A stretch of 63,937 bases of DNA, the filler included, from Dugesia japonica (lineage: Eukaryota), in NCBI GenBank assembly GCA_001938525.1. It is 6 parts of 6 records of this genome, joined end to end, with 100 filler letters (N's around TTAATTAATTAA, not from the genome) between each part and the next. Parts side by side here need not be neighbours in the genome. Positions count along the whole stretch, not along the records: positions 54,169 to 63,937 come from MQRL01631570.1; 5 more parts are not named here. One strand, written 5' to 3'. The notes beneath the pieces are model-generated. The model made no database searches and was not told where the DNA came from. It worked only from the letters and a program-made list of their open reading frames with translations. Shown piece after piece: positions 6,586 through 63,879 of this stretch. Each line of letters begins with the position of its first letter. Position 1 is the stretch's first letter. The position numbers were made by a program, and so were the translations under genes.

Positions 6586-6628
6586 CCCAAAAGGCAGGGC
6601 TCCACCAGTAGAGGAGTTGGTTGGAGCC
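6586..6628 (+). promoter_or_regulatory. Putative -1 ribosomal frameshift signal at gag/pol junction
   Basis: CCCAAAA heptamer, 5-nt spacer, then stem GGCTCCA...TGGAGCC; conserved at 26595-26637. Confidence 0.55.
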
Positions 6629-17650: not shown

Positions 17651-18769
17651 AATAAATATGTTGAGTTTACATAATACAAACAAATAAAAAACATAAACAT
17701 AACATGCAAAGCATACACATCAACAAAGCCCAAAGCTAACNNNNNNNNNNNNNNNNNNNNNNNNNNNNNNNNNNNNNAAATCAATCTGGAAAATCCCAAG
17801 CGGAACCAATCAATTTGAGTTATTCTGACATTGATTATTTAACTTATCAATCTTAGTTGTTTATCTGAACTACTAATTCAACAGTGTGGTTTTTAAGAGT
17901 GTACATTTTTAGTGGTTTTATTCTGAATTTATTTTATTTTATTTTATTTTATTTTATTTGGAAAAAACAATTATTATTTTTATTTTTATTTTGGAAAAAA
18001 CAATTTAATTTTTGTAAAGTTATTTTAAAAAAATAATTAAATTTTTGTAAAAAATATTTGAGAAATAAATTTTTATTGTAAATGTAGAATTATTTTCTGA
18101 GAATTTTATTGTAGGTGNNNNNNNNNNNNNNNNNNNNNNNNNNNNNNNNNNNNNNNNNNNNNNNNNNNNNNNNNNNNNNNNNNNNNNNNNNNNNNNNNNN
18201 NNNNNNNNNNNNNNNNNNNNNNNNNNNNNNNNNNNNNNNNNNNNNNNNNNNNNNNNNNNNNNNNNNNNNNNNNNNNNNNNNNNNNNNNNNNNNNNNNNNN
18301 NNAAAGGTTATTCTTATTTATTTATATAGGAATACACTATATTAGTTTATTTATATCATCACATATTGAATATATAATATTGTATAAACACACGATTGAC
18401 GAAAAAGAATTTAACACCCGTAAAATCATAATTATATATCTTTTTTCGAACCATAAAATCTTTTGTTGAGTTGTAATACCCAACAAATAATTTGATGTTC
18501 ATTTTTTCGTTTTCTGATCTGAAATTAATTTAAGTTTGTCGTTTTTTTTTAATTAATTAATTTAATTAATTCCTTTAATTTATTTTCTCTTTCTTCAATT
18601 ATTAGTTTAATATTATTTTCTTAGCTTTGCCTAATGAACTAATTGTTATTCATTATTTACTTTATCTGACTGATAGCTTCTACCACTACTTTCCTTCTTT
18701 TTGGCTTTCTTATTTCTGAGTTGTTTCTTGCTGTAACTTTAGATTTTCTAATCATTATTAATTCTTTAT

Positions 18770-24469: not shown

Positions 24470-26000
24470 TTTTTAAAGGTCTCATAATTAAACTGTCTAT
24501 GATGTGTAAATGTTCCATTAATATGGTCAGAAAATGTGCCAAAGATGACTTATATGTGTTAAATAATATAAAATATGACATGTATTGCATAAGTAACAGT
24601 TGCGTTTGAATTCCTGACCATTTTGCGGATCTGAGTCAAGTCAATTATTGACGATGATGACTGATTGTTTTTAAACAATTGTAGTGGTGTTCAATGTCCG
24701 GATGTGAACGGACGGAAACACTGTTATCAGAGATGCACTTACTGTAAATCGAGCTTTAACTAGATAAAACTACACAAGCTGGTCGATAAGTTCAATTATG
24801 AGTGGACTCAAACGCGTGCTATGTGACCTTAATGAATTCGTTTTGTTGGAATTTAGTATTGCGGAGGAGGCAATGTAATGGTTTGGAAGAAAAACAAAAC
24901 CGTTACTGAATCAATATATGAAAATAATTAATAATTTATTGATTTAAACTATTTACTTATAAAAAAATTTAAAAAATGATTTAGTTCATATTTAAAAGCT
25001 CATAAAACCTTAAAGATATATACTTGAAACTCATTTTTGCAACGCAATAGCTGCATTTATGCAACGCACAAACATTTTAGGTCATAGTTACCTTTTGATA
25101 AAAAACTCAAATATACCGTTGAAACCAGAAAATTATCATCCGTCACCCATTCTGTCGCGATTTTCTTTTTAAAAAAATTAATTTTTGCACACACACACAC
25201 AAGTCCCGTCACATAGGAATTACTAAACCTTTTCACCATCATTTGTCCCCAGTGTTCCTCTTTAAATCAAAGCAACAATTATCAAATACAACAAACAATC
25301 GCCACACTGGAATCTACTAACTGAAATCCAAAAACACGTCACTGTAACCAACAAGAAACATTTGTAAAAAGTTATCAATATCATTAGATACAGACTTAAA
25401 AACTCTATTCAAATACAACATCGAAACCCAATAAAAATAAAAAAAAAGATAAAAAAGATTAAAAAAAAAAGTGTTCGGGTGAAACACTGGGTACGGAAAA
25501 TAAAAATGGCAGTAGAAAAAAATCGGAGATTTCGGAAATGAAAGTTAAAAAGTAGTAGCAAGACTGGGAAAGAAGATAGAAGGGTTTGAAGATTGACCAA
25601 TAATTTTGGAATCCGAAAATAACCAACAATAAAATGAACTCATGTGACGTTTAAGCCAAAGGAAAAGTTAGAAAAGTCGTACGATGTCAAGTAACCAATT
25701 AGAGGAACGAGGGTGTAAAGTAAAATAGTATCAATTTCAAACAGAGCTCACTCATAAATATTTCCGAAGCGAAAATTGATTCCAAAGTCAATCAAAAAAT
25801 TTTTGGAAACCAGACGTGAAGCAACTTCAACTACAATTATCCTTAAAGGTGAATGGGTGAAAACAAAAATTTGAAATTCCATCAATTAGACTTAATTAAA
25901 ACAAATCCATGGTGGATTGGTCAGCATGACCTCATTATTTTGAGTGGTCAATTCCACACACACTTACCTCGCACTCCCTGACCTCCCATAACCTCCTTCC
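24470..26000 (+). repeat. Unclassified dispersed repeat X (interrupted by a long-LTR piece at 25472-25850)
   Basis: Colinear reverse-complement similarity to 55800-56950, for example GGTGGATTGGTCAGCATGACCTCATTATTTTGA and CCATTTTGCGGATCTGAGTC. Confidence 0.8.
25472..25850 (+). mobile_element. Internally deleted long-LTR fragment
   Basis: Starts TGTTCGGGTGAAACAC; body matches the reverse complement of 1150-1460 and 17150-17500. Confidence 0.7.
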
Positions 26001-35560: not shown

Positions 35561-37406
35561 AGTAAATTATCACCTAAAAGATTCAAAGAGCATATCTAAT
35601 TCGATAAAAACTTTGACATATAAACATTAATACTGTTCTCAACCATCTATTATTCAATATTAATAGAAAACAACCCTAAAGGAAGAACTTGCTTTTTGAT
35701 TTATTTCATTAAGGATAACGNTTGACGATTATTATACTAACATTAATGAATTTTATGTTTGTATAATCGCATCAAATCAATTGAAAAACATCTGTAATCA
35801 TTTTATATGACATGATTTATTTTGTCATAATCTTAAAATTTAGATAAACAATAAGTGACTTTTTTAATTTTTAAATAGATTTTAATTTAAATATTTAGAA
35901 AAATGAAATATTCAACTAAATGTTATGAAAAAAATGGAAATTAATTGAATAATGAAAATTTAATCCGGTTATTTTTATTTAATTTAAAATATTAATTGAT
36001 TTGTGTAGTGTTACTTATGATTTTAATTTGGATTTAGAGTAAAATAATATGAATGATGCATGTATTTTAGTTAAANNNNNNNNNNNNNNNTTAATTATAT
36101 TAATATTTTAAAAAATCTTGTTTAAATTCATTGTTTGAATTAAATGTAAACGTTGAAATTTCAAAATTGATTTTGATTTGTTTTAGAAATTACACATACA
36201 AAATATAGTTTTATATAGTTTTAAAATATGTGTAGATTTTCTTTAAGTTTCTTAGAATTTTAATAAATTTATATAAAAGTTTAATAAATATACTAAGTTC
36301 CATAACCTTTCTTGGATTTCATTAGATTTTCACCAACCATCCAACTAAACCATTAAATAACATGAATTATGCTCTATATTTTAAGAATTATATGAAAAAT
36401 ATAATGAAATCTAATAGGATTTGATTTCATTAAATTTTCACATTTTATTTTAATTATTATTAACAATGTATACTTTTCACATAATTTCACTTGTGAAATT
36501 TGAATTTATATGAATTTGATTATGATTTTATTGCTTCACTTACGATGAATTTGTCGAATTTTACTTAATGATGAATTAAATTTTGATAATTAGTTTAATA
36601 AATACAATTAACTTATTACAAATTTAATGTTAAAATTTTAAAACGTTGACTTTGAATTTTAATGTTCTCATGGACCAACTAATATTAAGAACTTGCTTTT
36701 TGATTTATTTCACTAGGAATAGAGATTATCGATTTTTATTACTCAGCATAAAATCCTCTATCGAAATTATATGGTTTCCTCATTAGAGATTACAATTATC
36801 CCTGATATCAACCAATAATAATAACTTGTTTTTAATTTTATTTCATCAATAATAAAGTTTGACGACTTTTAACCGTATTAATAATGATATTTTAAAATCT
36901 TTTATCGACTTTATGGTATATTGGTAATATGATCAGATGAAACCTCTACTATTTATGATTACTCAGATAAGATTAAATCAGAGCAATTCTTGCAACAACT
37001 CAATTGATTCAAATGATTGACGGTTAGGTCCCCAATTGCCCGGCAACTGTGGTGAACCATACACTCGATAAACTTTGGTTCAGTGACGAACAAATTAATA
37101 ATTTTATGGACACTTACTTGAATGAATATAGCTTTGTTCGTATTGANNNNNNNNNNNNNNNNNNNNNNNNNNNNNNNNNNNNNNNNNNNNNNNNNNNNNN
37201 NNNNNNNNNNNNNNNGGGATCCCTTGAAGAATTTTCCTAATGTCCCTGATTAAGTTATCGGTATAGAGTGGTTGACTTCCAACGCTTACTTGAAGTACAC
37301 ACTCGTACACCTCTATTTTTGGGTTCAATATTTCCCCATTATTTTAATTCAGTGAATATAAACAAATTCTAACAAAAAAATTTAAAAGAAGTTTATTTTT
37401 GTCAAT

Positions 37407-37766
37407 CTACATATAATTTAGCGCCTCAAGGTCCAACCACTGAGTGGGCTCGCCATTCATAAAATCGAAGGCGGCCTCATCGTCGTCACTGTTCCACCTT
37501 GTCCAAGCGCGCAGTTCTAATTGCGTGGACAAATCGGCGATGTAACCGTTTAGGAAATTAATTTTATTCTCCAAAATCTTCTTGGTCCGCTCGGCCAACT
37601 ACCCTTGTTTTTTGATTATGATGTCTAGCTTTTTAATTAATCTATTTTGTTGGGTGAGATGTCGTAGTAAAGCGAGCTCATTTTGCCTCTTAATGTCTGT
37701 CCAGAAGGAGCTTTTGGATAAGGCGATGACACCGGCGGAGACTAGTTGGTAGTCGTATTCGTGGCA
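37407..37766 (-). pseudogene. Long-LTR ORF-D exon
   Basis: ttag|TG CCA CGA: PRIRLPTSLRRCHRLIQ...DDDEAAFDFMNGEPTQWLD, homologous to 59638-60020; one stop and a frameshift; AATAAA follows. Confidence 0.7.
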
Positions 37767-37860
37767 CTAAGAATAAAGAGATGATGAGTCAACATAACGA
37801 GACAATCAAGATATCGAAGTAGTTCTAGTAAGATTTATTCAATGCAAAACATTTAAATAT

Positions 37861-38215
37861 TTAATTTCGAGATTGGGTGACTTTGTCCATCATTAATGGC
37901 TCCAGGAGAATACTTTTTCTTAACTCAAGAACCTCGGTGACCAGCTTATTTTTACGGTCATGGAGGAACTCAATAATATCTGCAAAAGATTCTACCAGGT
38001 GTTTCCAAGCACGCTCCTGAGCATGGTAGACCTCTGCTTCTACTCAGTAACTACGGCATTTATTCTGATACCTCTTTACTTTGGCGTTTGCCGTGGCTAT
38101 TTCGGCCTGCTATTTTCGTTTTGCTAATTTTTAAAGATCCCAGGAAATATCTATGCCCTTGCTATCTTCTCGGACCTTTTTTGTGGGAAAACGGATTGAT
38201 TCAGCGATGAATGCA
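37861..38215 (-). pseudogene. Long-LTR ORF-C exon (coiled-coil, ends DKVTQSRN)
   Basis: ttag|TG CAT TCA; homologous to 60133-60491; stops and a frameshift; AATAAA follows. Confidence 0.7.
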
Positions 38216-38426
38216 CTAAATAAGATACTTGTGTAATTAAATTAGGGATTAAGATGATAGAGTAAACAAGGAAAAACTTATCTTATTTCGTAATTCCAGA
38301 TTTATAAGTTAAATGACACAAAATAATTTTCATAAATATTCACCTATGACCAAAATTACGAAATTGGACAAAATATTTAAGACAGATAAAACCGATCATT
38401 TAATCGATGACACGGAAAAACATTTA

Positions 38427-38821
38427 TTAAAAATAACAAAAAAATGTTATGTTAAAAAATGTTTTTAAAAAAAAGATAAATTCAGTTCTCTGCATTTTCG
38501 ACGTTCTCCATATTCTCTGTTTTTTGCTGGAAGCCGGTTCCCTAATGCCCCAAAGTAAGTTGGTGATAAACGCACTTACAGTATGGGGTGGGCCGGAAGC
38601 TCTATATGCGAACTGGGTTACCAATTGCTGTATGGGACCACTCCAATTTTAATAATTCTGGCGTTCACCGAAATCGTGAATACGCCCAACTAAGGCCTTT
38701 ACAAGTGGCAAATTTGTGCGGTCTGCCAATACGCCAGCGTCTCTGTTATAGGGGTTGACGTGTCGCCGAAATATCATTCTTCGAGTCCGCCTATCCCATA
38801 ATCTTTCCAAGATAATGTTCA
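38427..38821 (-). pseudogene. Long-LTR ORF-B exon
   Basis: ttag|TG AAC ATT: NIILERLWDRR...NLPLVKALVGRIHDFGERQNY*NWSGP...SAFITNLLWGIREP; homologous to 60755-61039 and 43365-43756. Confidence 0.7.
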
Positions 38822-38931
38822 CTAAAAATTTGANTATAGAATTAAAGTAAATAACAGATTAATCGTATAAATCAAGAAAAAACATTCAGATTATAAAGGG
38901 TTTTATTTTCACGATTAAATGAAGATTGGGA

Positions 38932-39136
38932 TTAAGTGTCATAGTCCACGTCCACCTTGGTCACAAAGCGGAACATTTCGCCGAGGCGTGATAAATATGT
39001 CTCGTCTGGGTGTTCTACTATTTGGGGAAACAGTAGATGTCCAATTAGTTGCTTTCTGCGCGCACAATGCCTTTCTTGACGGATGACATTCAAAGCTTCG
39101 CTTAATATATCGGACTTAGCCGTGGGTGTTTCAGAT
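38932..39136 (-). pseudogene. Long-LTR ORF-A exon
   Basis: SDILSEALNVIRQERHCARRKQLIGHLLFPQIVEHPDETYLSRLGEMF...; start codon appears mutated to AAG; AATAAA follows. Confidence 0.65.
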
Positions 39137-39274
39137 CTGAATAATATTATAGTATTATAATATCATAGTATTGATCACCGAAGGTGATAGCTAATGCAGG
39201 CAAACTTTATCTATAATAAAGCGAAACATTTATGACTACCGGAGTCGCTATTGGTATTAGGGGTAATAGCTTTA

Positions 39275-39490
39275 CTAATTCAGTATTAACAATATTACGA
39301 CGATAATAACCATAACGTTAGTAGCAATTATAATATCGATAATTATAGTGATAATAAAGTAATTACTACAAAAATTAATGATGATAATAATGACGATAGT
39401 AATAATAATAATGATAATAACGATTATAGTAATAATGATAGTAACTACATAAATAATAATGGGAATCATAATAAAAATCATGATAACTAC

Positions 39491-39556
<66 letters not shown>

Positions 39557-39606
39557 NNNNNNNNNNNNNNNNNNNNNNNNNNNNNNNNNNNNNNNNNNNN
39601 NNNNNN

Positions 39607-39674
<68 letters not shown>

Positions 39675-39700
39675 TGTTAATAATGTTGATAATAATAAAA
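39275..39700. repeat. Degenerate and perfect (AAT)n tract inside long LTR
   Basis: Same relative position as 61320-61830 and 42000-42930 in other copies. Confidence 0.85.
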
Positions 39701-42700
39701 ATTCAAATTCTACAATATTTGCATTGTTAGGGAAAATAGGTGAATTGTGACACCAATGATGACAAAGATATAGTAAAGATATTCTCGATGGTGTAAATAT
39801 TAACAAATTAGTTATGATCATATAATAAAAAAAAAATTTTTGGACACTATGTTATTGAAAATGTTAATGATAACATACATAATTGAACAGTGATAACTTT
39901 TAACATTACGCTGAAACTCAGCACGACTTTAAAGCTAACGAACAAGGTATCAGGCATGATATAACCACCCACAAAAAGGACTTCTCACAATAACAATTCC
40001 NNTCTTAGTGACAATCACAAGCGCCAGCATGGAAAAGGATCATTCTTCACTCTTATAGGAAAATCAATAAACTGCATCTAACTGAGAATTAATGTAATAA
40101 ATGAGAAGCGAAGTAGTGATGGTGTGTAACCTTTTACACACTTGTTGGGGTGAAACACCTGGTTTTAGAAAAAAGAAAACAGGGCTAGGGGCTCAAATTA
40201 TAGAAATAATGAAGAAATGGGGTTGAAAAGAAAATTAATTAGGAATACGTATCAACTGCTAACATAATAATAAATATTCTAATAAAAAGAATAAAAAGAA
40301 TCGGAAGAAAGGTAAACTACAGAAAGAAGTCATCAGATGAATACACTCAACCTCGATCAACTTCAATAATTAAAAAAATTTTAAGTTATTAAGACAAAAC
40401 AAGAAAAATATTATTGGAAAAATAATTAATTAGCAGAAAAATATTAATTAATTTTAGACAAAAAAGAGTTAAAATTAGGAAAAAATCAGTTTTGGTCGAT
40501 TTTCTCAGCCCAGGAAAATCACAGAGACTTGTAATAAGAAAACTGGAAGGGGAAGGTAACTGGGCAATAAAAAAGTCCAATAAGATTATCGTGACATCAA
40601 CAGAAGGCTTGAGAAAAGGTCCTGAAGTTTAAGCCAATTATATTCCAGAAAAGAAAAATAAAACAAAGACAGTACAATCACAAGGTGCTCCAAAAATAGG
40701 CATCAATGATAGAAGAATGAAGAATTTAAAGAAAAAATCTGAAGATTGGCACCAAGACCAATAAAAACAAGAAACTCAAAAAAAAAATATAAGCCCAATA
40801 GCGATTGTGCCGGGTTGTATTTTAAACCACCCCCCCCCAAAATTTAGAAGAAAAACACACTTTTTTATATTCATTTATCAATTGGGTTATTATATCAAAC
40901 TGTTATTACGACAATCTACTTCCAGACGATTCATAAGGAAAGCATATTATCAATGTACCATTTGTAAGATCAGCATTTCTGATAAATTAATTTATCTGTG
41001 TCTATCCCAAATTTGTAGCAACAGAAATTCTAACAAATAAAGGAGGAGACGGAACAATAAAATCTATCAAAATAAATTTAACCGAGATTGAGATACATTC
41101 TTTTGACGATTAAAACCATTGAAGAAATCTTTATTTAAGCAGTAAGTGTCTTTGTTATATTATGTTATTCTATTATGATTTAATGCCATTATTAATAAAC
41201 TTGTTTTTAATCTGATTTAGGTGTTATTTTATTAATAATTCTTTTAATTTACAGATAATAAAAGCAACTCGTAATACATTAATGAAAATTAATTTTTGAA
41301 CTTCATTAAATTGACCTGAAATGACAAACTCAGTTCACTACAAAGTCGATAATATTGAATAATCTGAAATACTCTCAACTCTTTGTAAAATTTTGGACAA
41401 AATCGTCATCATAGGATTAGGCAATCACATAACCCATGGCACATGTATGTCTTTTCTATTGTGTGTGTATCTAATTGGCAGCACCGATTACTGTATATTG
41501 GTAAGCATGCTATGAGAAAATATTGTTAAACATCAGTATGAATCATTTCCATTTTATTTAATGAACGCTGCCAATGGCTAAGTTAATTCGAGCTATGTTA
41601 AGACAATGGAATCTATCAAATCTAGGTTACATTCATTTCATTACCTTTACGAGATCATCAACGTCGTAAGTTGGAATTTTTTCACAGTGGATCTTCTATT
41701 TACTCAGACATTATATCCAGATGAAGTATCCGGACAAACATTCTAGTTAATTATGAAAATGACTTATATGAGATTTATCTTTGGCTTTCGGTAAAATTAA
41801 TATTAACTATTCTCTCGTTTAGTTACAAATATATAATCATCAAGTAGAGTCAGGCTCTTCATTATCTACCCTGCTCCGAATGAATTTCTTGACTTACATT
41901 TATTTTTCAACATCATGATGACAGCTGGAAATAATAATAGAACAGAATTATTTGACGTTGTAGATGCAATTTTTGGTCACAACGATATTCGGTTGACATC
42001 ACTGTTATGATCATCAGTACCTATTAACACTATTCTATTCATCATTATTATAATTAAAAGATTTAATATGGTTAATGATTTAATTTATACGTCGGTTATT
42101 GATTCTAAATTATTGTTCTAATTTTTACGAGTATCAGCAGCGGGATTTTGTCACTATTACCAATATTACAATTATTAACGATCTTAGCATTTGTCTTTAT
42201 TAATTTAATGTCATTTCGTCGTTAGAAATGTGATTGTTAACAATTTCTCCCTTCAATTACTAATTTTCCAGTTTTGAGCACTAGGTTAGAAACCCGGCAT
42301 CGGTGATTCCAATCGAACCATTATTATGATATTATTCAACGATATTGTTAGTGCGCTCAGGATCTATTATTATGACTATNNNNNNNNNNNNNNNNNNNNN
42401 NNNNNNNNNNNNNNNNNNNNNNNNNNNNNNNNNNNNNNNNNNNNNNNNNNNNNNNNNNNNNNNNNNNNNNNNNNNNGGTGTCACTAACCGTATTAGTAGT
42501 TCCTATCATGATGATTTTCAGGGAAAGAGATTTATGATACATTTAACTGGTTGATTTTATAGTACGCACTAGTCATATGATCATTATTATTTCTTGATGG
42601 CAAATGGCAATGATAAAATAATTACTGTAGTATAATTCTTAATAAATTTAGAATCATTCGAACCCTGTTTAATTAAATCACTAATATTATCGTATTATAT

Positions 42701-43061
42701 CATTGATAAGATTACTATGACTTTTAACTGCTAAATGATGCTAAATGTTGCTGGTTATTATTATCGTTTCCTTATTATTGTGATTAATAGCAATATCGGC
42801 TGTTTGGCCAACAATATTACAAGTAGCACTATTATTATTAAACACAATCACCAAANNNNNNNNNNNNNNNNNNNNNNNNNNNNNNNNNNNNNNNNNNNNN
42901 NNNNNTATATTACCTCTTTTATATTGATATTATAAATATTACCAAAAATCATTTTAGCTAAATCAAAATAAGAGTCTAGTCCTCAGTGCGCCTCACCCTT
43001 AATAGAATACTTTGTAGAATCTATTGTTCGATCCATCACATCCAATTTTGTCTACTAACCC

Positions 43062-43247
43062 ATGACCAGAATTTTGATAGATACATTACGGTGGATCCGT
43101 CATAAAAGACAACGAGGAAGGCGTAAGCAATTACTGGCCCACATTCTTTCTTTAGGACGGATTGAACCTCCTGACAAAACTGACCTAAGGTGTTTCGTCG
43201 AGATGTTCCCGTTAGAGCATCAACTGGATATTGACGCAGATTCTTGA
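43062..43247 (+). CDS. Long-LTR orphan ORF-A (61 aa, intact)
   Basis: MTRILIDTLRWIRHKRQRGRRKQLLAHILSLGRIEPPDKTDLRCFVEMFP...; AATAAA about 35 nt after the stop. Confidence 0.6.
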   Translation: MTRILIDTLRWIRHKRQRGRRKQLLAHILSLGRIEPPDKTDLRCFVEMFPLEHQLDIDADS

Positions 43248-43364
43248 TGGTAGTATCGTTAATATAGTGANGTTGCAATTAATAAATTTTTCATGTTTAA
43301 TTTCGTTCGCAGTTAATTGCTTAATATTCAATCCTGGTGTTAATTATGATTAATTTTAGCTATA

Positions 43365-43756
43365 ATGGAATACAAATGGAGGTTGTACTCGATCGAAGAA
43401 CCGGCCGCACAATATTCAAACGCTATAAGAACGCATACAATAGAGATGCGGGTGTTTTCGCAAAGCGTTCTAACTTACAGGCTGAAGAAGCGCCACGCCT
43501 TCTATGACTGGAAGCGGCCTGATAGGGCACGAGCTGTTTATCATGCGGTTACCTCCACCCACCTAGATGCCAATTGTGAACAAGAAACCACCCGGACATG
43601 GCAAGAAGGCCTATCCGTCGTATGTCATCACTAATCAACTACCATCTTTTCCTAATCTAAGTGCTTTCGTTCAAGATCATTTGTGGAGTGTCCGAAACAC
43701 CGAAAGTGGCGGTAGCTCGGAGAACGCTACCGTCAATATTAGTAGTTGTCTAATGG
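43365..43756 (+). pseudogene. Long-LTR ORF-B (divergent, frameshifted)
   Basis: ttttag|ctataATG; KKRHAFYDWKRPDR and LSAFVQDHLWSVRN align to ORF-B of other copies. Confidence 0.55.
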
Positions 43757-44839: not shown

Positions 44840-47450
44840 TGTTTCGCAATCACAGAAAGATTCTTGCCAAAAATATTTTGCAAAATAATTTTTTCAAAAC
44901 GTCGATCTAGAAAAGTTTATTAAACGGTGTGAAATATACTTTGAGGCAAAGAACATCGCTGTTAAGAAAGATCAGAAACATTGGGTAACATGTGTTGGGA
45001 TGAAACACCCAGCGTGAGAAGAAAATCAAGGCCGGGGGCCCTAGTCATAAAATAATAAAAAAAGAAGTTATAAAAAAATCGATTAAGAATAACTAACAAT
45101 AGTGGAAAAATGACAATGATTACATTAATACAAAAACGAAGGAAAAAATAAAATACTAAATGGAAGCATCAGATAGATAAAGTATTGATCAAAATTAAGC
45201 GATTAATTAAAGAAAATTACAAATATAAATAGACGAATACGAAAATGATCAGAAACATAATAATTAATTAATAAAGAAAAATTAATTAATTTTAACGAGA
45301 AAAGAAAATAAATTAAGCGAAAATTAGTTTTTCGAAAATATTTCCGCTCAAGAAAGTCACAGAAACATGTAAAGAAAATTGGAAAGGGGTGATATCGGGT
45401 CAATAAGATTTCGTAACCAGAAAATTTTATTACCAATAAGACGGTTCTTACAAGGGTTAGAATAATAAGCCAATAAGAAACCAGAAAAAAAATAAAACAA
45501 AGNAGAGAAGATCACATGGTAACTTAAAAATATCCACCAATGGAAACTCAAAAAATCTACAAAGAAATCTGAAAATTGGCACCATCGCCAATCAGAAGCA
45601 AGAAATTCGAATTAAAAATAGTAATCCAATAAGAAAAATATTACCAATTTTTTAAAATTAGTAAAAAAGTAATTTGAAAAATTATTTTATTGATTACTTT
45701 CGAAAGGAGAATCTTTACTATTTCGTTATTATTATAACTTCAATCAAAGGGAAAACCATAAATCATTACTTAGGAAAATTTTATTAGAATGTATTAATAC
45801 GAGCTTTAGAGTTTATACTACAATATAGGTTAAAAATTACTGACGTGAGCAGTGATAACCTTCGCGAGTAAGAAGCATAGTAGCATTTTTTCCCTAAATA
45901 TATCATAATAATAATCCATACTTTATCCATTTAAATTTATCAACAGAAACCGTTGCAGAACTTTTGATACAAAGAACAGAAGATCACATGGTAACTTAAA
46001 AATATCCACCAATGGAAACTCAAAAAATCTACGAAAAAATCTGAAAATTGGTATCATCGCCAATCAGAAGAAAGAAATTCGAATTAAAAATAGTAATCCA
46101 ATATCGATGATGCAGAGTTGCATGGAAAAATGGTATTTAAACTCCACAAATTTTAGATGAAAAAACTAACATTTGTGAAATTTATTAGTCATTACAGCAC
46201 TGTAGCCTAATTTTGCTTTGAAGAAAATAGTTTACGAGAAAATTCGTGGAAAATTACCAATATATTACAAATCGTAAGACAGCAATTTCCAAAAGTNGGA
46301 TTAACTGTAATTATCATCAAATTATAGCAGAAGACTAGTCGATCTGAACAAAAAGGTAGCAACTAAATTAGAAGGCAAAAAATCTCAATCAAAATTTAGT
46401 TAAGAATCATCCCTCAGTTCATTCACAGCCCGTTGCAGAATCGAGTTAAAGATAACAGTAAGCAAAAGTTTTATGTTTATTAATTTTGTAATGAAATTGT
46501 GTCATATCTAATATAATATTTAATCAACATTGTTCATCTCTAGTAAATACTGCCTAAAACCAGTTTAATATTTTTATTGGAAGAGGAAATTTATTGCCAA
46601 CTGGTAAAATCGCTTCTGTTAAATTTTAACTGACATAATTTTTCCTCAATTTTTACTAACTCCTAACCAAAATAATTGCAGTTATCGACCTGGATAACCC
46701 ATGATTTTCATTTCTCGTAAAACCGAGGCTTGTACTATGTATAATAGGTACAAACTAATCTTGTCTGAGTAACATGAATCAAGAGTCATTAAAACTCCCT
46801 TGCAAGTGTGCAGCCGGCATGTAAATTTGACGATAGAACTGCAGTGAATGTGTGTGTTAGAAAACTCTAGTTGGATATCAGCGTAATTATCTGTTGGTGA
46901 TTATTTACAATTCTCGGCTATCCTGCCTCACATGTGCAAAACCTTCTGATCTCAATCACTTTTCGGAAATTAACTATCATGAGAGTTCAGGGATTTATTA
47001 GGGCATATCTATTAATATGCTTCGTGACACCTACTAGTGCAATAGATTTTTCAGGCTAATATTGATACTGTCGCCAGTAATTGCCAACTGATTGAATGAC
47101 TATTGTTTCTGCAACTATCATCAATAATTCCGATAAACACCATTAATTCTGTAAGAACTGTAGTGTAGAATAAAATACATATTACTAATAACGTTTTGTT
47201 TGTTCATTCAATAATCAGATAAATAAGGGAAAACTAATGAACCCAAATATAAAGGTATGCGAGTGTAAACCTCAAATATAGGTTGGATGTCAATCACTCT
47301 ATACCGAAAACCTAATAAGGGGCATTAGTTAAATTCTTGAAAAGGTCCTCTGAGAGCTGTTTTTCCCCATCCGTGTTTTTTCTATCACAAACTCAGGTGG
47401 GACCCCAACACATGTATGCTTCATGAAGATTTAATTGAAGCATATAGTTG
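44840..47450 (+). pseudogene. gag: Gypsy gag N-terminus split by solo LTR
   Basis: DLEKFIKRCEIYFEAKNIAVKKDQKHWVT|CMLHEDLIEAY reads through when 44993-47414 is removed; homologous to gag at 5621. Confidence 0.8.
44993..47410 (+). mobile_element. Solo long LTR (2418 bp, internally deleted)
   Basis: TGTTGGGATGAAACAC...GGGACCCCAACA with 4-bp TSD CATG (44989-44992 and 47411-47414); lacks ORFs A-D; donor A|GTAAGC at 46457/46458. Confidence 0.9.
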
Positions 47451-48586: not shown

Positions 48587-49620
48587 ATGGGGAAACTAAA
48601 GACAATATGGATGGATCCAAAAAACCCAGCAGGTTTTCGAGGCGTAGACAAGTTGATGAAAACATCTCAAAACACGTAAAGAAAAACAAAAAAGTGGTTA
48701 TCGGGACCGCTAGCGTACAGCCCGAACAAGCCGATGTTGAAAAGATTTCCAACAAGAGCATATACAACATATGTTATTGATGATTTATGGCAAATGGATC
48801 TAATGGAGATGATTCCATATTCAAAAATTAATAAAGGGTACAAGTATATTTTGACATACATTGATGTATTCAGTAGATTTGCAAGAGCTGTTCCTGTTAA
48901 ATCAAAATCTGCTAATGATATGAAACTAGCAATCAAGTCAATGTTTAAAAATGGACATCCAAATAATTTACAAAAAGACTTGGGTAACGAACTTTACAAT
49001 TCCAAGGTGAAATAACTTATAAATCATCTATCTACAAACCATTATAGTGTATTCTCTCAGTATAAAGCTGCACATGTTGAGAGATTTAATCGTACATTGA
49101 GAGATGCATTAAAAAGTACTTTGTACATGTTAGTAATAAGACTTGGATAAATGTTTTACCGAAACTTATTCATAGTTATAATCATTCTGGTCATAAGGGA
49201 TTAAATGGAGCAAGACTGGTTGATGTAAGTACAAACAATCAATTAAAGTTATGGTTATCACGTAAACATAAAAGCAAATAAAAACCAAAGGATAAAGTTG
49301 GCGATCATGTGAGAATCTCAAAGATATTAGCTTCACCATTTATCAAGAATTTCAATAGTAATTAAAGTGATGAAGTGTTTCAAATAACAAAAATCATCAT
49401 GAAACAAAATCCGGTCATGCATGTTATTAAAGATTATGAAGATAATATTGTTCAATGAAAATTCTTTGAACAAGAATTTCAAGTCATTCCATCACCAGAG
49501 ATATATAGAATAGAAACAATAATCAAATCAAAAGGAACTGGAAAGAATAAACAATACTATGTAAAGTGGCATGGATACGAAAAACCAAGTTGGATATAGT
49601 CAATCAGGAAGAAAATTTAG
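48587..49620 (+). pseudogene. Polinton retroviral-like integrase with C-terminal chromodomain
   Basis: DPKNPAGF...KKWLS; WQMDLMEM, YILTYIDVFSRFA, LQKDLGNE, VERFNRTL, KVGDHVRIS, YRIETIIK...YYVKWHGY; several stops. Confidence 0.92.
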
Positions 49621-50640
49621 ATGAAATCAAGTCATTTCTATACGCTTTTACTTAGTAATAGCTGTCCACTTATTCATCCTGAGAATAATGCTAGTAAATT
49701 CATTGTCNAGCTACAAAATCCAATTTATATGGATTATAGTTTGGAAGTTNCAATGATGGACTTCACCTTTATATATTCACCATTTCCGGTATATAGCAAG
49801 TCGAAAATTGAATATATTACTGCAAAAAATATATTGAATGAAATAACTGTAACAATAAATAACAAGGAAAAAACACAAAACAAAAACTTTGAAATATTTG
49901 AAAATAATCTCATAAGATTTTATTGTGAATTTCCATATGTTGTCATATTTGAAGATGGACATATCGCACATTCATTTGGATTAGGATTTAAATCTAANAA
50001 ATTATCAAAGAAATTTGGTCATATCTATACAAACTTTACAAACGATGACACAGTAAAAAACGTAAAAATTAAAGTAGCTTATACAATGGTGAATTATCAT
50101 ACTTTTCAGTTTAAAGATGATATATACATATCAGAATTGGAACAATTACGTAAATATTTGACCGAAAATTGTACTCAAATATTTAAGAAATGTCTTATAA
50201 ATGCGGATAAATATGTTGAATTTGAGCTACAAGATGACGTCAAACAAGTTGTATTTGATAATGTCTTGACAAAAACATTGGGATTAGAGAAACAACATTA
50301 TTCTCCTGAAGATATGAAGGGAGGTCAGTTCAAAGCTATTACCAATTCGAAAATAATGAAATTACATCAGCAAATGTTCATCTATAGTAGTCTTGTTAAA
50401 TCTATAATTGTAGGAGATGTTAGTGTACCTTTATTGAAAGTAATATGGATAGAAAAGTATGATACTGATGAAGTAGTGCAAATAATAGTCGAGAATCCAA
50501 TGTATTTACCCATTGCAACACCATGTATAAACAATATAGAAATTAATATACGCGATGATAAAGGAAAATTACTCAAGTTTCCAAAACATTCAAAAATCCA
50601 TTTAACTTTACATTTTGGAAAACTAAATAATGAATCCTGA
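49621..50640 (+). CDS. Polinton minor capsid (penton) protein
   Basis: FYTLLLSNS...HPENNASKF at the N-terminus; MFIYSSLV...VGDVSVPLL...PMYLP...IEINIRDDKG...LTLHF at the C-terminus; 339 aa open. Confidence 0.85.
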   Translation: MKSSHFYTLLLSNSCPLIHPENNASKFIVXLQNPIYMDYSLEVXMMDFTFIYSPFPVYSKSKIEYITAKNILNEITVTINNKEKTQNKNFEIFENNLIRFYCEFPYVVIFEDGHIAHSFGLGFKSXKLSKKFGHIYTNFTNDDTVKNVKIKVAYTMVNYHTFQFKDDIYISELEQLRKYLTENCTQIFKKCLINADKYVEFELQDDVKQVVFDNVLTKTLGLEKQHYSPEDMKGGQFKAITNSKIMKLHQQMFIYSSLVKSIIVGDVSVPLLKVIWIEKYDTDEVVQIIVENPMYLPIATPCINNIEINIRDDKGKLLKFPKHSKIHLTLHFGKLNNES

Positions 50641-51073
50641 TATTTTTTCAATGTACAGTACTAGTCAAGCAGGTGGAGAATTACCTTACTTTCTTGAAAA
50701 ACAGTATGGATCTGGTTGGTTGAGAACAATAGGTAGATTTGCTTTACCGATTCTTAAACGTATTGATTCTTTTAGTATGAAAACAGCTCAGGATGTACTA
50801 GCTAATGACGGAAANATACTACCAACATTGAAATCAAATGCATTAGCTGAACTAGGAAATGTTATGTCATCATTACCTAGCGGAGTAACCAATATGATTC
50901 CAAAAGTAGCAAACATATTACCGCAAAGTATAACTAATAAAATACCATCAGAAATAACTAATATACTATCAAATCAAGTTCAAACACCACAAAATAGTAG
51001 AAAATGTACGAAATCTCATGGATCACGTATAAACAAACGAATGAGAGGTCATGGAACAATGTTTGAAGAATGA
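50630..51073 (+). CDS. Polinton core / membrane-lytic-like protein
   Basis: QAGG and QYGSG adenain-type cleavage sites, amphipathic GWLRTIGRFALPILKRI, basic tail; position between the capsid genes. Confidence 0.7.
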   Translation: MNPDIFSMYSTSQAGGELPYFLEKQYGSGWLRTIGRFALPILKRIDSFSMKTAQDVLANDGXILPTLKSNALAELGNVMSSLPSGVTNMIPKVANILPQSITNKIPSEITNILSNQVQTPQNSRKCTKSHGSRINKRMRGHGTMFEE

Positions 51074-52242
51074 TTTGCGGTAAAACTGAATTATGTATTT
51101 TTGATGAAAAAAAAAGGATTTAAATGAAAATGGTACTTTCGAAGATGTCTTTCCTATGAATTCAATTTCTGAATCACGAAGTGACGTAGAGTTTTTTATA
51201 AATGGATCTCAAACAGAATGTTTGGATTTGAATGATACTTTATTGTATATTAACTTGACGGTAGTTGATAAGGCTGGTAAAAATTTGACTGACACTCATG
51301 ATGCAGTTCATAGTAATTATATGTTGCATACGCTTTTTAAGAATGTAATTCTTTCCTTTAATAATTTCAAAATTGAAGGTGGAAATGGATCTTATCTTCA
51401 CAAAGCAATAATTNAAACTATAATAAATTATAATGGTGATAGTAAAAATATCTGTCTTGCAGCAATGGAATATGGATCAGAAGCAAATAGAAAGAAGTCT
51501 ATTAAAATATCAAAACAATTGGCTCTATGCGATTCATTACAACTCAATTTCATGGATCAACCGAAATACCTTATTCCTGGTGTCAATGTTCATATTAAGT
51601 TGAAACGATCAGAAGCTGATATTTGTTTGGAATCTGCAGCCAATACATCTAAATATGTATTTCTAGATGCAAAATTAATGGATAGACGTGTACTTGTTGA
51701 ACCTTCAGTTCTAATTGCTTATTAAATGGGACTAAAAAAACAAAAAGCTGTTTATCCGATAAGAACCAAGGATGTCGTTGCATTTGCAATTAGTAAAGAT
51801 AGTTCATCGTTTTATAAGGAACAAATCTTTGGTGATCGAATATAATGGTAGCTATAAAAGCTCGAGTTCAACATTTCAAAATCTAGATGCTGTTTCTGTT
51901 TCCTTGTCNNNNNNNNNNNNNNNNNNNNNNNNNNNNNNNNNNNNNNNNNNNNNNNNNNNNNNNNNNNNNNNNNNNNNNNNNNNNNNNNNNNNNNNNNNNN
52001 NNNNNNNNNNNAAGAATATGAATTGTGGAATAACACTTCAAGATTTTAAGGATAATTATCCTTTCTTTACATTTGTTCGTGCTCCAGATTTTGATATAAA
52101 TCATAGTCAATTACCTCAACAAGAAAATTTAAGATTATAAATCAAGTTTGCCAATGCTTTAACAACATTGGCATATGTTATAATTTATGGAGTATTTGAC
52201 AAAGAAATTCAGATGAAAGAAAACGGAACAGTATTAGTGTAA
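51070..52242 (+). pseudogene. Polinton major capsid protein (double jelly-roll)
   Basis: KTELCIFD start (KSELDLF type), VEFFING...LDLNDT, HTLFKNV, QPKYLIPGVNVHIKLKR, AVYPIR, GITLQDF...FTFVRAPD, NLRL*IKFA; frameshifts. Confidence 0.8.
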
Positions 52243-52270
52243 ACAATATTTTGTGTAATTGGTACATGTT

Positions 52271-52686
52271 ATGAAGTAAGTGTTTTGTTTATATTAATGA
52301 TTTTTATTTTAATAGTACTATTCAGATTGATCAGATTGCAAAAAGTGGCTTGGATCAGCTTCTTTATGTGTTTATGCGTTAGATAAACTTCCAAAATATA
52401 TTCCAGTAAACAATGCTTTAATTATCAATACTCATACATCAAATCTAGGTGGAGAACATTGGATAGCTGTTTACAATAAACCTGCTCAAATACTAGTATT
52501 CGATCCATTAGCATTTTATCATCCATCAATATTGGTATCTCACTTATCGAAAATACCAAAACCAATAGTCTACAATAAAATCCGATATCAAGATCCATTT
52601 AAAACTACATGTGGTCAACACTATTTATTATAGTTGGAAAAAACAACATTATACTTGACAATATTTATTTTTTCTTGTAAAAAATA
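52271..52686 (+). pseudogene. Polinton adenain-like cysteine protease (with putative 40-nt intron at 52276-52315)
   Basis: ATGAA|gtaagt...aatag|TACT gives MNTIQIDQI; then VYALDKLP, IINT...GEHWIAV (His), FDP (Asp) and QD...TCGQH (Gln/Cys). Confidence 0.85.
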
Positions 52687-59398: not shown

Positions 59399-59637
59399 TG
59401 TTGGGGTCCCACCTGAGTTGAGTGAAAAAGAACGTGGCTGGGGAAAAACAGCCCTCATGGGACCCGTCCAAGAATTTACCCTGACGCCCCTAGGTCAGGT
59501 TTTCAGCATATGGTGGTTGACCTCTCTCTTAATGGGAGGTGCACGCCCACAAGCCTTTTATTCGGGTTCACTGTTTTCCCTTAACATACGCAAAAAATTC
59601 AAGTCAAAGATATTTAAAACGTTTATTAACATGATAT

Positions 59638-60020
59638 TCATAATTCCTCCAACACACCAGGGTCTAACCACTGGTCTGGATCGGTGGTCAAGAAGTTGAA
59701 CGCCACCATATCATCGTCGTCGTCCCACTGAATCCCAGCTGGATTACCAATCTGACGAAATAGGTCAGCGATATATTGTTTTAAAAAATCTATCTTTCTC
59801 AGCAATGATTGCTTGTTTTCTATTTCCAGGGCCTTGATTTGGGCCGCCAAATCGTTTTGTTTTCGAACTATGAAATCCAACTTTTTTATACGTTTGTCTC
59901 GCTGGGTAAGATGTCGAAGAAGGGCTCGGTCTGTTTTACGCTTTAAGTGGCGTTCTAGCAACAGCCAGCGCATGATACGATGACATCTTCGCAAACTAGT
60001 AGGAAACACGATACGAGGCA
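59638..60020 (-). CDS. Long-LTR ORF-D exon (127 aa with spliced AUG, intact)
   Basis: TACTAAC branch-like motif, ctttctttag|TG CCT CGT; basic N-terminus, coiled coil, WDDDDD...FNF...QWLD tail; AATAAA 10 nt after the stop. Confidence 0.7.
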
Positions 60021-60132
60021 CTAAAGAAAGTTATAATTAAGTTAGTAAATTCAAAGTTTAAAAACGGAGACAACAAAAATTTATAAATGAAGAACATTTA
60101 TTAAAGTTAATCAAATTATAAACAGAGATGAT

Positions 60133-60491
60133 TCAGGAGCGGTTAGTCTGCGTGCCTTTGTCGATAAAGAGAGGAGTCAAAGGAGTAGCGGCCCTTAGCT
60201 TCAAGATATTTTCCAATAGCTGGTTCTCACGTTCCTGATAAGATATGATGATTTCCGTAAGAGTTTAAACCTGTGTTTTCCACACCCTCTCCTGATTCTG
60301 GGTAGCTTCTACTTCAGATTTATAAGCTAGACACCTCCGCTTATATCGTTTAACATTAGCTTCTGCTGCTGCAGACTCGGCTTCCCACCGTCTTTTGGCG
60401 AGTCGATACAGATCTTACGTGAGTTCTATATCCTCACTGGTTTCCCGTAGCTTTTTATTCGGGGCCTGAGATCTATTCAATGATGAATACA
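60133..60491 (-). pseudogene. Long-LTR ORF-C exon (coiled coil, ends DKGTQTNRS)
   Basis: tattttcag|TG TAT TCA; YSSLNRSQAPNKKLRETSEDIELT*DLYRLAKRRWEAE...PLFIDKGTQTNRS; two internal stops, frame kept; AATAAA downstream. Confidence 0.7.
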
Positions 60492-60754
60492 CTGAAAATA
60501 CAAACGTAATAAAGAATGACAGAAACTTAGCAGAATTATAATTTTATTCAATGGGGACAGACTGGTGTACTAAGGACAAAACCAACACTGAGGGGTATGT
60601 CCTATTTATTCTACGTAACAACCTTACGTTGGAATATTATCGTTTTCTAAACATGAAGACTGTGAAATCCGACCCATCTTGTTATTAAAATAGAAATTTA
60701 TTCGACTTAACATACAAAGTTATATCATAATTCAACAGTAAGTAAGAGAACTAT

Positions 60755-61167
60755 TTATTCAATTTCTACATGGGAACAAGGTTTATTAGTTTTCATTATT
60801 AGTGTTGACACTGGGTCCGTGTTTTCAACATAAGTTACTCCAGTTGGCTCCCTAACCCCCCAGAGGAGATTAGATATAAAAGCCTGCACAGCAGGAGCTG
60901 GGGCGGGAGGGGGAGTCTGATATTGGAAAGAGGTTGCCAACGTTCGATCAGGACCTGTCCACGTTTGATAACGTTGACGCTCTCTAAAGTCCCAGATGCG
61001 AGCCACAATTGATTCTACTGGAGGCAAATTTGACAGCAAAGATCTGTCACATCCGGGTGTTCAATTCTCCCTTTGGTCAAGAGGTGTGCGATCAATTGTT
61101 TTAATCGAGCAGTTTGTCGTTGTCGCCTTATTCATCGAAGGGTACGACTCAACTCGGCTGGCATGAA
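60755..61167 (-). pseudogene. ORF-A/ORF-B deletion fusion
   Basis: MPAELSRTLR*IRRQRQTARLKQLIAHLLTKGRIEHPDVTDL (A) joined out of frame to NLPPVESIVARIWDFRERQRY...AFISNLLWGVREP (B). Confidence 0.65.
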
Positions 61168-62886
61168 CTAAATAAAAGAAACTAATTTTAAATCATCCCT
61201 TGATTTAGTCCTTTAAAAAAGAGCGGAACCATTATTACAGCCGGATAGCATTACTAAAGGACCCCGACGTCAGTCCTCTGAATGGGTTCAATTTAAACTC
61301 ATCAGTCATTGTTAGGAAACTTAACCCTGTTCGTAAACCTCGTAATAAAGATTGTAGTGATAAACATGATAACTTTTGATCCTACGAATGATGACATGTT
61401 CTGTGGTGATGATAATAATAACCATAACAGTACGGTGAACCATAATAGTAAAGAGGGTATCACTCATAAGGTGAATAATAGCGGGAATAGTGTTAAACAT
61501 AACAGTCACTTTAGTTATCAGGTTGCTGATAATCGAGGTAGCAACAATACTATTATCCCTGACATCCATGGTAGTATCACTAATATTAACAACACTAGTA
61601 CGGATCACAAGAATAATAATAATGATAATAATCCTAATAATGGTGATAATAATAATGACAAGGAAGATACCAATAACCCTAGCCATAATGATAACCATAG
61701 TATGAATAATACTGGTACGATTAACAGTAATAATGATAATGATAACAATGATATTAATACTAATCATAATAATAATAGTAATGATAATAATAATAATAGT
61801 AGGAATAAAGTTAATCCTAAAAATCATAAAATTTGTATTTAAAGTTCCGCGTGTTGTGGTTGCCTAGTGATTTTTTCTTCGTTAAGTGTCACTATCTCGA
61901 TCCTCTCGATGATAGTGTGTCAGACTCTTAGTATAAGCTCAGTGCATGCGTGTATACATGGAACCCAGAGTTGAGTGGCAGATGTTATATTCATGTATAT
62001 TTAGTTAACTCTTATACACACATACTATCCTACGGGAATTGCAAATATCGATCTGACACTCTTATGGATTCTAGTGGAATTAGTGACACTTAAAATGGTT
62101 TGTAAAGTACACACAACCTGGTAGTCATTTCTGTCTATCCATGTATTTCGGCATGGTGTTTATGCAATTTTTTTGGATTAAAAGATACGAATTTGGGAAT
62201 AAAAAATAAAACAATACCTTTTATTTGTCATCGTCATGGATTATCTACAACCTATTTCACCAGGTAAAATTTTGGTTCTATCGTCTATAATTTACCAATC
62301 TTTTTTTACTCAAGAATTTAATCAATTCTCGGCTTCAACAACTTTTCCATGTTTCAGCTATTCATCATCAAATCGCTGTTACACGTGGAATTCTAACTGA
62401 TCGGCGATTATTGTAGGTAGTCTAATAATAACTTAATATTGAAACATTTAGAATTATATGCATTTGTAACTAATTGAGGTGAGTCGTAATTTGGGATTTT
62501 CCTTTTTTTGTAAATAAAAAGTTTGAATTTTATTGCTGGTTTAATTTGAATATTGTTAATACGAATTTTGCGTGTCAAATATAACGGAATTTAAGTTTAT
62601 GATTTTTTATACGTTAATCTTATTTATTATGACGAGTGGTAAAACCAATTTACTTTCCAGTTTTTTCTTCTAAGGTTATCAACAGAGAACTAGTTTAAAT
62701 ATATATTTTTTTGTCAATATAATCGCAAGGTATCGGCAACATATCTGTCGTGGTCATTATATTTATCCGAAACGAATAATAACATAAGGTTTTTTTATAT
62801 AGCTTAATGTATTATGATAAATAACATTCAACAATTCTTTTATAACACAACTTTAGCAAAATCAAAATTAATATTTTACTTTTTAA

Positions 62887-62893
62887 TATTACT
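62887..62893 (-). promoter_or_regulatory. Putative leader-exon splice donor A|GTAATA
   Basis: Follows CGTTGCAGAAT as in the 46 kb copy (A|GTAAGC); 41 kb copy has A|GTAAGT. Confidence 0.5.
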
Positions 62894-63877
62894 GTGGAAT
62901 TCTGCAACGAGTTATTTTCTGACACGGGAGTAGACTTCAGGAAAACTGGCTAATGACTTCTGTTGAAAATCCTTCTTCTAGAGTAGTTGAACTAATTTCT
63001 TCTTTAATTCTAACAAAGATTCCGATTAATTAACTTAGCAGTTATCTCGATCTTACCACTTTAAATTTTAAAATTTGAATATCCGATCCTGCTTGGAAAG
63101 TTTCTAATGCGATTTCCTTTTTTCCGTTACCAAGTTATTACACGAAAATCAGTCAGTCACAGTGTTGTATAAAGAAAATTTATTTTTTAAGAAGTTATTT
63201 CACCAAAGTTTGTTGCTGCTTATATATGTCTTTAGTTGCATCCCGACCGTATTCCTGTTGGTTGGTTATTTTTAATTTGAATTATTTGAATTTTATCGGA
63301 TCTGGTGCCAATCTTCTGAGAATTCGGGAGTTCTGATCGGTGGATATTTTTAGACTGGCACCTGATAGTTGTGACTTTGTTTTATTTTATTTTTTAGATT
63401 TCTTATTGGTCCGATCTTGAAGACCCTGCAGCAACCTTCTGGATGGTGGAAAGGTTTTCTTCCTAATAAATCCTAATGCTTCTTGTTACTTTCTTTCCGG
63501 ATTTTCTTACCCGGATCCTTTCTGACTTTCCTGGCCGGAGTTATTCATATAAAATAGATTTCCCACTAATTTTACTTCTTTTTTTTTAAAATTAATTAAT
63601 ATTTTTCTGTTAATTAGGCATTTTTTCGTACTGGTCTTCTTGAGTTTTTATTATGGGTTTCTCAATTCTTTTATTTTCCGATGCTCCCGTAAGTTGTCTT
63701 TATGTCCACCGGTTCGTTGTATCCAGCTTTGATTGTGTTTTATAACTCTTTAAGGATTATTTTCGTTATAACCTTCCTAAATTAGACTTGCTTTCTTCTT
63801 TGAATTCCATTACGAGTAAATTTGCTGGTTCTAGGTTCTGAGTCTTATTTTCTTTCCTTACGTGTGTTTCACCCCAA

Positions 63878-63879
<2 letters not shown>

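Follow-up and report, generated by a model that had tools for sequence, protein, structure and literature searches.

We studied a stretch of 63,937 nucleotides (hereafter the window) from the planarian Dugesia japonica (assembly GCA_001938525.1), made of six parts joined with filler letters, and focused on a repeat unit at positions 59399-63879 on the minus strand. The unit carries four small open reading frames (ORFs), named A, B, C and D, which are under purifying selection while the spacers between them have diverged to background. We favour, with moderate confidence, the explanation that this unit is a solo long terminal repeat (LTR) from a giant retroelement of the Gypsy type, whose cassette of ORFs would lie in a long R region and be expressed from a shared leader with a start codon split across a splice junction. 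The observations behind this reading are the termini of the unit, a 4-bp duplication, the order of the ORFs, the purifying selection, the diverged spacers, the donor and acceptor motifs, and the placement of AATAAA signals.

Four conserved ORFs in a repeated unit

The window is AT-rich (GC 0.20-0.37 in 2-kb steps) and composed of decayed mobile elements, among which we identified eight copies or fragments of the unit. Copy 1, the LTR-like unit at 59399-63879, lies on the minus strand within a (TAA)n tract and runs from TGTTGGGG to CCCCAACA; its minus-strand reading starts with TGTTGGGGTGAAACAC and ends with GGGACCCCAACA. It has the TG...CA termini described in the initial annotation, together with a perfect terminal inverted repeat (TIR) of 9 bp (7 bp in copy 4). 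The TGTTG start fits the pattern TGTNR, and no longer inverted match was found within 300 bp of the unit ends. The ATAA/ATAA flanks of copy 1, being in the TAA tract, are compatible with a 4-bp target site duplication (TSD) and weakly informative. In copy 4 (44989-47414 on the plus strand, including the duplication), the sister element at 44993-47410 is bordered by CATG on each side, and the insertion splits a gag-like frame whose two parts continue on either side of it, as they should after a 4-bp duplication. The initial annotation was right about this duplication and read it as showing an LTR-type insertion, which a 4-bp TSD by itself does not establish. It also presented 44993-47410 as a sister of the ORF-bearing unit; this TSD-bearing copy (2.4 kb) lacks A-D and has in common with copy 1 only the promoter and leader and the final ~190 bp.

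The order A-B-C-D is found in copies 1 and 2, A-B at 43062-43756 (plus strand), and A with a B remnant at 4520-5391 (minus strand), as originally noted. Copy 2 (37216-40142, minus strand) has all four ORFs, each with an acceptor, a stop and AATAAA, and contains stops and frameshifts; its 5' part is interrupted by copy 3 and its final ~60 bp fall within an N run. Copy 3 (40143-43756, plus strand) comprises the 5' end, the promoter, both splice donors, an intact A (43062-43247) and a truncated B with its own ATG. It sits head-to-head in copy 2 (at 40143): members of the family nest in one another. Copy 5 (4520-12752, minus strand) consists of a 5' part (12008-12752) followed by A (4890-5081) and the B remnant, and is interrupted at 5392-12007 by a Gypsy element with short LTRs.

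Copy 1 is a decayed relic that, judging from its frames, could make at most D intact. Its ORFs are all on the minus strand. ORF A (61041-61169) has an acceptor AG at 61168-61169, its own ATG at 61164 and an in-frame stop at 61134. Its 3' end was lost in a ~270-bp deletion that fuses A to B and takes the end, stop and AATAAA of A together with the acceptor and ~35 N-terminal codons of B; other genomic contigs diverge from copy 1 past 61030-61034, at this deletion point. In the sister copies, A has ~61-64 amino acids, with a basic helix and an acidic tail. ORF B (60755-61033) keeps a core and a tail, with AATAAA at 60697-60702. ORF C (60133-60493) has an acceptor AG|TG (AG at 60492-60493), two in-frame stops (60417 and 60267) and AATAAA at 60097-60102; in copy 1 it lacks any in-frame Met, and copy 2 has just two, both close to the end. 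ORF D (59638-60022) is the only open frame, with an acceptor AG|TG (AG at 60021-60022), AATAAA at 59622-59627, and 15 conserved codons upstream of its first Met.

The amino-acid identity across ORF copies is 0.39-0.55 in the seven pairings tested. Between copies 1 and 2, the pN/pS is 0.38 (bootstrap 0.33-0.45; 326 codons, pS 0.82, pN 0.32), hence not near 1, with blocks aligned as protein and thus a slight bias toward a lower ratio; identity by codon position is 0.61/0.72/0.37. The true dN/dS is expected to be below 0.38, since silent sites are saturated and decay after insertion is included. As controls, shifted frames gave 1.0-1.6 and the exact antisense frame 0.51. The three other pairings of A gave 0.43-0.52. 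The B-C and C-D spacers have an identity of 0.59-0.60, equal to that of shuffles, which agrees with the earlier statement that the copies align as protein while the DNA between them has diverged. The four ORFs were also said to be unrelated, and this was upheld for the two pairs compared with hhalign (A with D, A with B), which have no profile similarity.

We then used contigs of the DNA run X1, aligned at a likeness of at least 80%, where the values are summed contig depth and not copy number. The depth is 3448-3992 over D, 1435-1596 over C, 752-1322 over B, 2026 over A, and 5214 at 63299-63448 in the promoter-like block described below. In 11 of the 13 150-bp bins over 61199-63148 it is 55-236 (one bin is at 0, skipped as repeat). 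The bin at the 3' end is the deepest by a wide margin, with 33,417, compared with 381 at the opposite end. These peaks on A-D, the promoter and the 3' end show that these parts are kept in many family members. In 20 X1 contigs the conservation of C breaks off at 60495-60497, immediately above the AG, and six of the seven differences listed at 60178-60205 are in third positions (40 of 1134 rows). The 3' peak falls on a conserved terminal domain (59399-59590, minus strand) that matches copy 4 at 75% and has an AATAAA/TATA-like element at 59557-59562 and a terminal stem. Stem pairing of the final 60 bases (59404-59465) is possible in copies 1 and 4 with differing letters; the fold of the whole domain was rejected as not significant (z of -0.5 and -2.1).

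Predicted promoter, splice and polyadenylation signals

The promoter-like block (63219-63600, minus strand) contains CCAAT at 63405-63409, ATTGG at 63308-63312, and the TATA box TATATAAG at 63219-63226. Over seven copies, CCAAT motifs are clustered (22 in 4322 bases vs 7.1 expected) in a block 650-810 bp from the 5' end of the unit, where four of the seven have a TATA box. The X1 depth peak at 63299-63600 coincides with this block. From these sequence motifs, namely the CCAAT cluster, TATA and AATAAA, the unit would have its own Pol II promoter and poly(A) signal.

Below the TATA box, the identity between copies 1, 3 and 4 is 0.59-0.64 vs 0.57-0.58 when shuffled, and these copies have only four collinear hexamers in common. 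Two are of low complexity and two are donor-like, GTAAGA (63056) and CAGTAA (62894), with P of 0.001-0.013. Around them we predict, on the minus strand, a leader exon 1 (63057-63200) without ATG in copies 1 and 4 and with one in copy 3, a 47-nt leader intron (63010-63056, GTAAGA...TAG) whose donor hexamer is common to copies 1, 3 and 4, and a leader exon 2 (62893-63009) that is ATG-free in all three copies. Five of the six predicted leader exons thus lack an ATG, and the size of the predicted GT..AG intron ranges from 47 to 55 nt across copies. The second exon ends in CA before a second donor, CA|GTAA (62887-62892), which reads GTAATA in copy 1, GTAAGT in copy 3 (41142) and GTAAGC in copy 4 (46458). 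One X1 DNA contig joins 63009 to 63057 (47 nt, CT..AC), skipping the predicted leader intron exactly, which suggests reverse transcription of a spliced RNA. Two other joints, 60303-61085 and 61181-61272, were rejected as splices for their non-canonical ends.

The acceptors of the ORFs, initially described as pyrimidine-rich, are T-rich only modestly (pyrimidine fraction 0.50-0.75 vs a mean of 0.47). AG|TG, in phase 1, is present at C and D in both copies carrying them, always as TTAG/TCAG|TG, and also at B of copy 2 (the background of TG after AG is 0.067); A, and B of copy 3, have an ATG of their own just inside the exon. AATAAA lies at most 60 nt from the stop in 8 of the 9 scorable ORF ends, being missing after A of copy 5, when A of copy 1, whose end is deleted, and the truncated B of copies 3 and 5 are excluded. 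With a background of 0.16-0.22 per 60 nt, the binomial probability is 4e-5, for ends that are not fully independent. The motif occurs elsewhere in copy 1 too (16 on the sense strand, one of them inside C). The features of alternative last exons, i.e., an acceptor, a stop and a poly(A) signal for each ORF with a donor upstream, are complete in copy 2. The original claim that each ORF has all three holds for copy 2, and fails in copy 1 at the A/B boundary removed by the deletion.

In the mechanism that we propose, transcription would start ~30 nt below the TATA box and the 47-55-nt leader intron would be removed. The second donor, whose exon ends in A, would then be joined to the acceptor of A, B, C or D, giving one ORF per mRNA. 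Exons C and D start with TG and have no early Met, and they therefore need one upstream base. For them, and for B of copy 2, the A of the leader and the TG of the exon would form an ATG across the junction, a process that has a precedent, since the env of springer-subclade errantiviruses builds its start codon as AU+G across a junction (10.1101/2023.08.03.551782, available part). A has its own ATG, so the split start is not needed by all four ORFs; A and B of copy 3 would initiate at the ATG just inside the exon. Each last exon would end at its own poly(A) signal, and read-through without splicing would yield the genomic RNA, whose end would be set by the terminal signal near 59560, with A-D in a very long R region.

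Weighing the LTR reading

A number of points weigh against the solo LTR with a spliced cassette. The RNA screen covered two of the seven raw RNA runs, X11 and X14 (both oligo-dT, with about a quarter of each read), and one set of contigs guessed to be RNA, X8. Only 23 of 13,591,480 records of X11 and 13 of 11,583,297 of X14 match the unit, all partially, with no joints, start sites or end sites. There is no leader junction among the X8 pieces listed, and one listed X8 contig that reaches the acceptor of D is unspliced there. Since the RNA runs gave no junction, start or end sites, splicing and polyadenylation are put forward as predictions. Of the earlier proposal of one promoter driving alternative 3' exons, what is supported is the CCAAT/TATA block, the two donors, the AG|TG of C and D and the intron-skipping contig; junction or poly(A) reads were not found in the two runs. 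The family, close to silent in X11 and X14, is likely silenced in the tissues sampled. LTR elements in planarians are repressed by piRNA according to the available part of PMC8532177, and such repression would fit the scarcity of reads.

The joint that skips the leader intron also comes from a single contig. It is one of the 15 joints listed (3 not shown) and carries the mark "between: not known", and its match to the predicted intron was not blind, as the joint table was known before the alignment. Another DNA contig skips 65 nt inside D (59673-59739) with GT..AG on the plus strand; this could be chance or an antisense splice, and with its ends on the opposite strand it indicates that canonical ends can arise by chance. 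Further donor-like sites are present between the second donor and A, and the second donor of copy 1 (GTAATA) is weak. None of the eight copies or fragments in the 64-kb window adjoins an internal region, gag-pol, a primer-binding site or a polypurine tract. The LTR status rests accordingly on the termini, the TSD, the internal promoter and the one sign of an RNA stage. The Gypsy gag-pol pieces in the window have their own LTRs of ~155 bp, one of them being nested in copy 5, and we rejected the unit as their LTR. A genomic RNA with introns and four poly(A) signals in R would need to remain unspliced, with polyadenylation suppressed at the 5' copy. Finally, no homologue or confident fold stands behind the functional guesses for A-D.

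The rival that survives best, which we consider unlikely, also takes the unit as an LTR and places the cassette in a 4.3-kb U3. Retroviral accessory genes such as nef, sag or bel overlap U3. The genomic promoter would then be the TATA-like site in the last 190 bp, leaving a short R-U5, and A-D would either form a passenger transcription unit driven by a separate promoter or be spliced to a donor located in the internal region. In X1, no part of the unit is shared nearly as much as its last 150 bp, which have the conserved element, resembling TATAAA/AATAAA/AATAGA, and the terminal stem; the resulting strong-stop of ~135 nt would have an ordinary size. However, the sole CCAAT-rich promoter with a TATA box lies 650-810 bp away from the 5' end, and GT-rich sequence comes after the terminal element, as expected of a poly(A) signal. 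The genomic RNA would also need to read through four poly(A) signals immediately ahead of R, and the donors in the unit already account for the ORF starts.

It is more doubtful that the unit is not an LTR at all and is a self-contained, non-autonomous element with the same spliced cassette, either a Ginger-like or undescribed DNA transposon or a small element retro-mobilised in trans. It would explain the lack of an internal region beside all eight copies or fragments and the retention of introns across subfamilies diverged to silent-site saturation. Ginger1 and Ginger2 likewise have TGTNR termini and 4-bp TSD, along with introns, an integrase-like transposase, TIR of 40-270 bp, and targets CCGG/CCGT (Ginger1) or RTATAY (Ginger2), as described in the available part of PMC2836005. 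In contrast, the unit has a 7-9 bp inverted repeat without subterminal inverted match, a CATG target (one informative site) that fits neither, and no transposase or remnant of one in any copy, and the DNA contig from which the predicted intron is exactly missing suggests a passage through RNA.

The least probable alternative is that A-D are tandem monocistronic genes with small promoters and starts of their own, the AG|TG and donors being chance or decayed ATGs: A has its own ATG, each ORF its own AATAAA, B starts differently between copies and no junction reads were found, but the same TTAG/TCAG|TG at C and D in both copies despite saturated silent sites, the absence of Met from C of copy 1, and spacers of 90-260 bp at background divergence, with little room for promoters, make this hard to sustain.

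Returning to the solo LTR with its cassette in R, we compared it with known systems (published descriptions are cited from the available parts of each source). The closest are Burro/GYPSM1, giant Gypsy elements with an internal region up to 25 kb, a total above 30 kb, and by implication multi-kb LTRs (PMC6431247). They resemble the unit in an AT-rich genome, an abundant Gypsy-type repeat, multi-kb LTRs and accessory ORFs (PMC6431247, PMC8532177, PMC11410931), and piRNA silencing could explain the few reads of the unit (PMC8532177). They differ in having extra domains in the polyprotein or an accessory ORF upstream, genes in the LTR not being mentioned in that part of the text (PMC6431247). Both the Burro membership and the LTR status of the unit are unproven. 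The MDG1 group of Drosophila retrotransposons (412, mdg1) has small conserved accessory ORFs near the 5' end, sORF1 and sORF2, whose dN/dS is low, and a short accessory transcript arises there from an alternative poly(A) site (10.1101/2025.03.14.642691). These are two unspliced ORFs between LTR and gag, whereas here four or five lie in the LTR-like unit, each behind an acceptor. In the springer subclade, the split start serves a single env ORF in the internal region, while here A+UG is predicted for two or three alternative exons behind one leader. The plant elements Grande, Retand, RIRE2 and Ogre have conserved extra ORFs of unknown family, some antisense, and Ogre has LTRs up to 6.5 kb; unlike A-D, their extra ORFs are internal, mostly between pol and the 3' LTR, and the texts available mention no array of alternative last exons (PMC7264820, PMC6431247).

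The overall logic of one promoter, a shared leader, and alternative acceptors and poly(A) sites is that of complex retroviruses and of the adenovirus major late unit. Retroviruses have at most one or two LTR-overlapping ORFs and one shared poly(A) site, and adenovirus is a DNA virus. In HTLV, an antisense gene is expressed from the LTR (PMC7264820). The available parts of PMC11410931, PMC13238120, PMC13524379 and 10.64898/2025.12.11.693146 contain nothing on LTR-borne genes, and our literature search found no description of this architecture in the portions of the sources covered; the supplements of the primary Burro description and Repbase, outside its scope, may cover these ORFs. What appears to be new is the CCAAT/TATA promoter inside the unit, the two conserved donors and the AG|TG split start at C and D, with the splicing itself predicted from the DNA.

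Predicted products, antisense frame and other features

Homologue searches returned nothing for D or for the alignment of B, in a length-limited search where fused forms are not detectable and with a protein library apparently without host proteins (its best match to a reverse transcriptase (RT) of the window is at 80%). In the atlas search, D had no relative and A a best value of 0.88, bacterial and weak. We found nothing at the cut-off in Pfam for six proteins and four copies of A, best E of 0.035-2.1 against PDB sequences, and no match in Rfam. With alignments of four rows, AlphaFold2 gave one long helix for A (pLDDT 61) and a pLDDT of 41 for B. D has a basic region, a heptad-rich middle and an acidic-aromatic tail. 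The Pfam scan gave it no bZIP family, and it has only the basic stretch and partial heptads; it may work like a bZIP-type transactivator without being filed as bZIP. C has a basic KKLR/KKVR motif, a long helical part and a C-terminal KGTQT (KVTQS in copy 2) that resembles the TQT anchor of LC8. By pattern, it may form a coiled coil, its basic motif being import-like and its C-terminus a candidate LC8 anchor of the TQT type. This anchor is predictive and not sufficient, as many TQT peptides do not bind LC8 (PMC6607443, available part). With low confidence, A-D may be nuclear accessory regulators of the element or of the host cells.

An antisense frame, E (61366-61842, plus strand), would encode 158 amino acids rich in Asn, Asp, Ser, His and Thr. 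It looks coding, with some uncertainty, from its codon usage. GAT/CAT/AGT/ACT outnumber TAT/ATT/AAA/AAG by 41 to 15, vs 10 to 53 in AAT tracts taken as background (Fisher 3e-10), a measure that is not strictly like for like, and its counterpart in copy 2 has 19 to 9 (4e-6). A hydrophobic stretch follows in frame after a stop, and stops are only weakly depleted there (6 vs 11.9, P 0.04; a second frame has 6 as well). Comparison of the copies over E by tblastx gave low-complexity matches only. A 180-codon Ile-rich frame at 61321-61863 was rejected as a gene, being the mirror of the antisense Asn frame. A CRE/ATF-like TGACGTC lies at 61266-61272, between the divergent starts of A and E, and a branch-point-like motif with a phase-1 AG|TG directly precedes the ATG of E (61357).

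LTRs are regarded as control regions that do not code for protein, and a solo LTR as a dead end. We propose, tentatively and with somewhat less than even confidence, a wider picture, in which the LTR would be a free-standing unit resembling an operon and expressed by alternative splicing: one promoter and one leader ending in the A of the start codon would serve four unrelated last exons in a ~3.6-kb R, with an antisense fifth gene, the choice of splice acting as a translation switch, and each of the solo LTRs, which probably number hundreds to thousands per genome, would be a source of novel nuclear regulators. If true, a single LTR can express several genes with an organisation no less elaborate than the accessory region of a complex virus, and recombination to solo LTRs spreads protein genes instead of removing them. 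Although no relatives of A-D were detected in the searched libraries, selection has kept them across subfamilies with saturated silent sites, and they would be candidates for new regulators that act on transposition or on the stem-cell and silencing pathways of the host. With exact coordinates for donors, acceptors and poly(A) signals, a single long-read data set could test the model.

Scans with the terminal motif gave four metagenome matches, no viral match and one genome match, with GC of 51-57%; they share nothing but the motif with the unit and are put down to chance. Among the remaining copies, copy 6 (1100-2062, minus strand) has the 5' end, four CCAAT boxes and a TATA, and related fragments lie at ~16950-18760 (minus strand) and 25472-25850 (plus strand). 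Copy 4, which has the promoter, both donors and the terminal domain, carries the CCAAT-rich block of its promoter twice, at 45497-45631 and 45969-46103 with 95% identity, a kind of duplication often seen in LTR enhancers. At 46680-47100 (plus strand), in the place that E and A-D occupy elsewhere, it has an acceptor-like site and decayed Cys-containing frames, possibly another type of cassette.

The Gypsy element nested in copy 5 has LTRs of ~155 bp that are 84% identical, and contains at 8906-9868 what we take to be hAT-like transposase fragments. A protein filed as the RT of a bacterial metagenome-assembled genome, P0001, is 80% identical to a Gypsy RT of the window and is likely host DNA in that bacterial assembly. 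At 48680-52633 (plus strand) lies a decayed run of genes that, labelled by eye, is presumably Polinton/Maverick-like, with integrase-like, penton-like, capsid-like and adenain-like protease frames.

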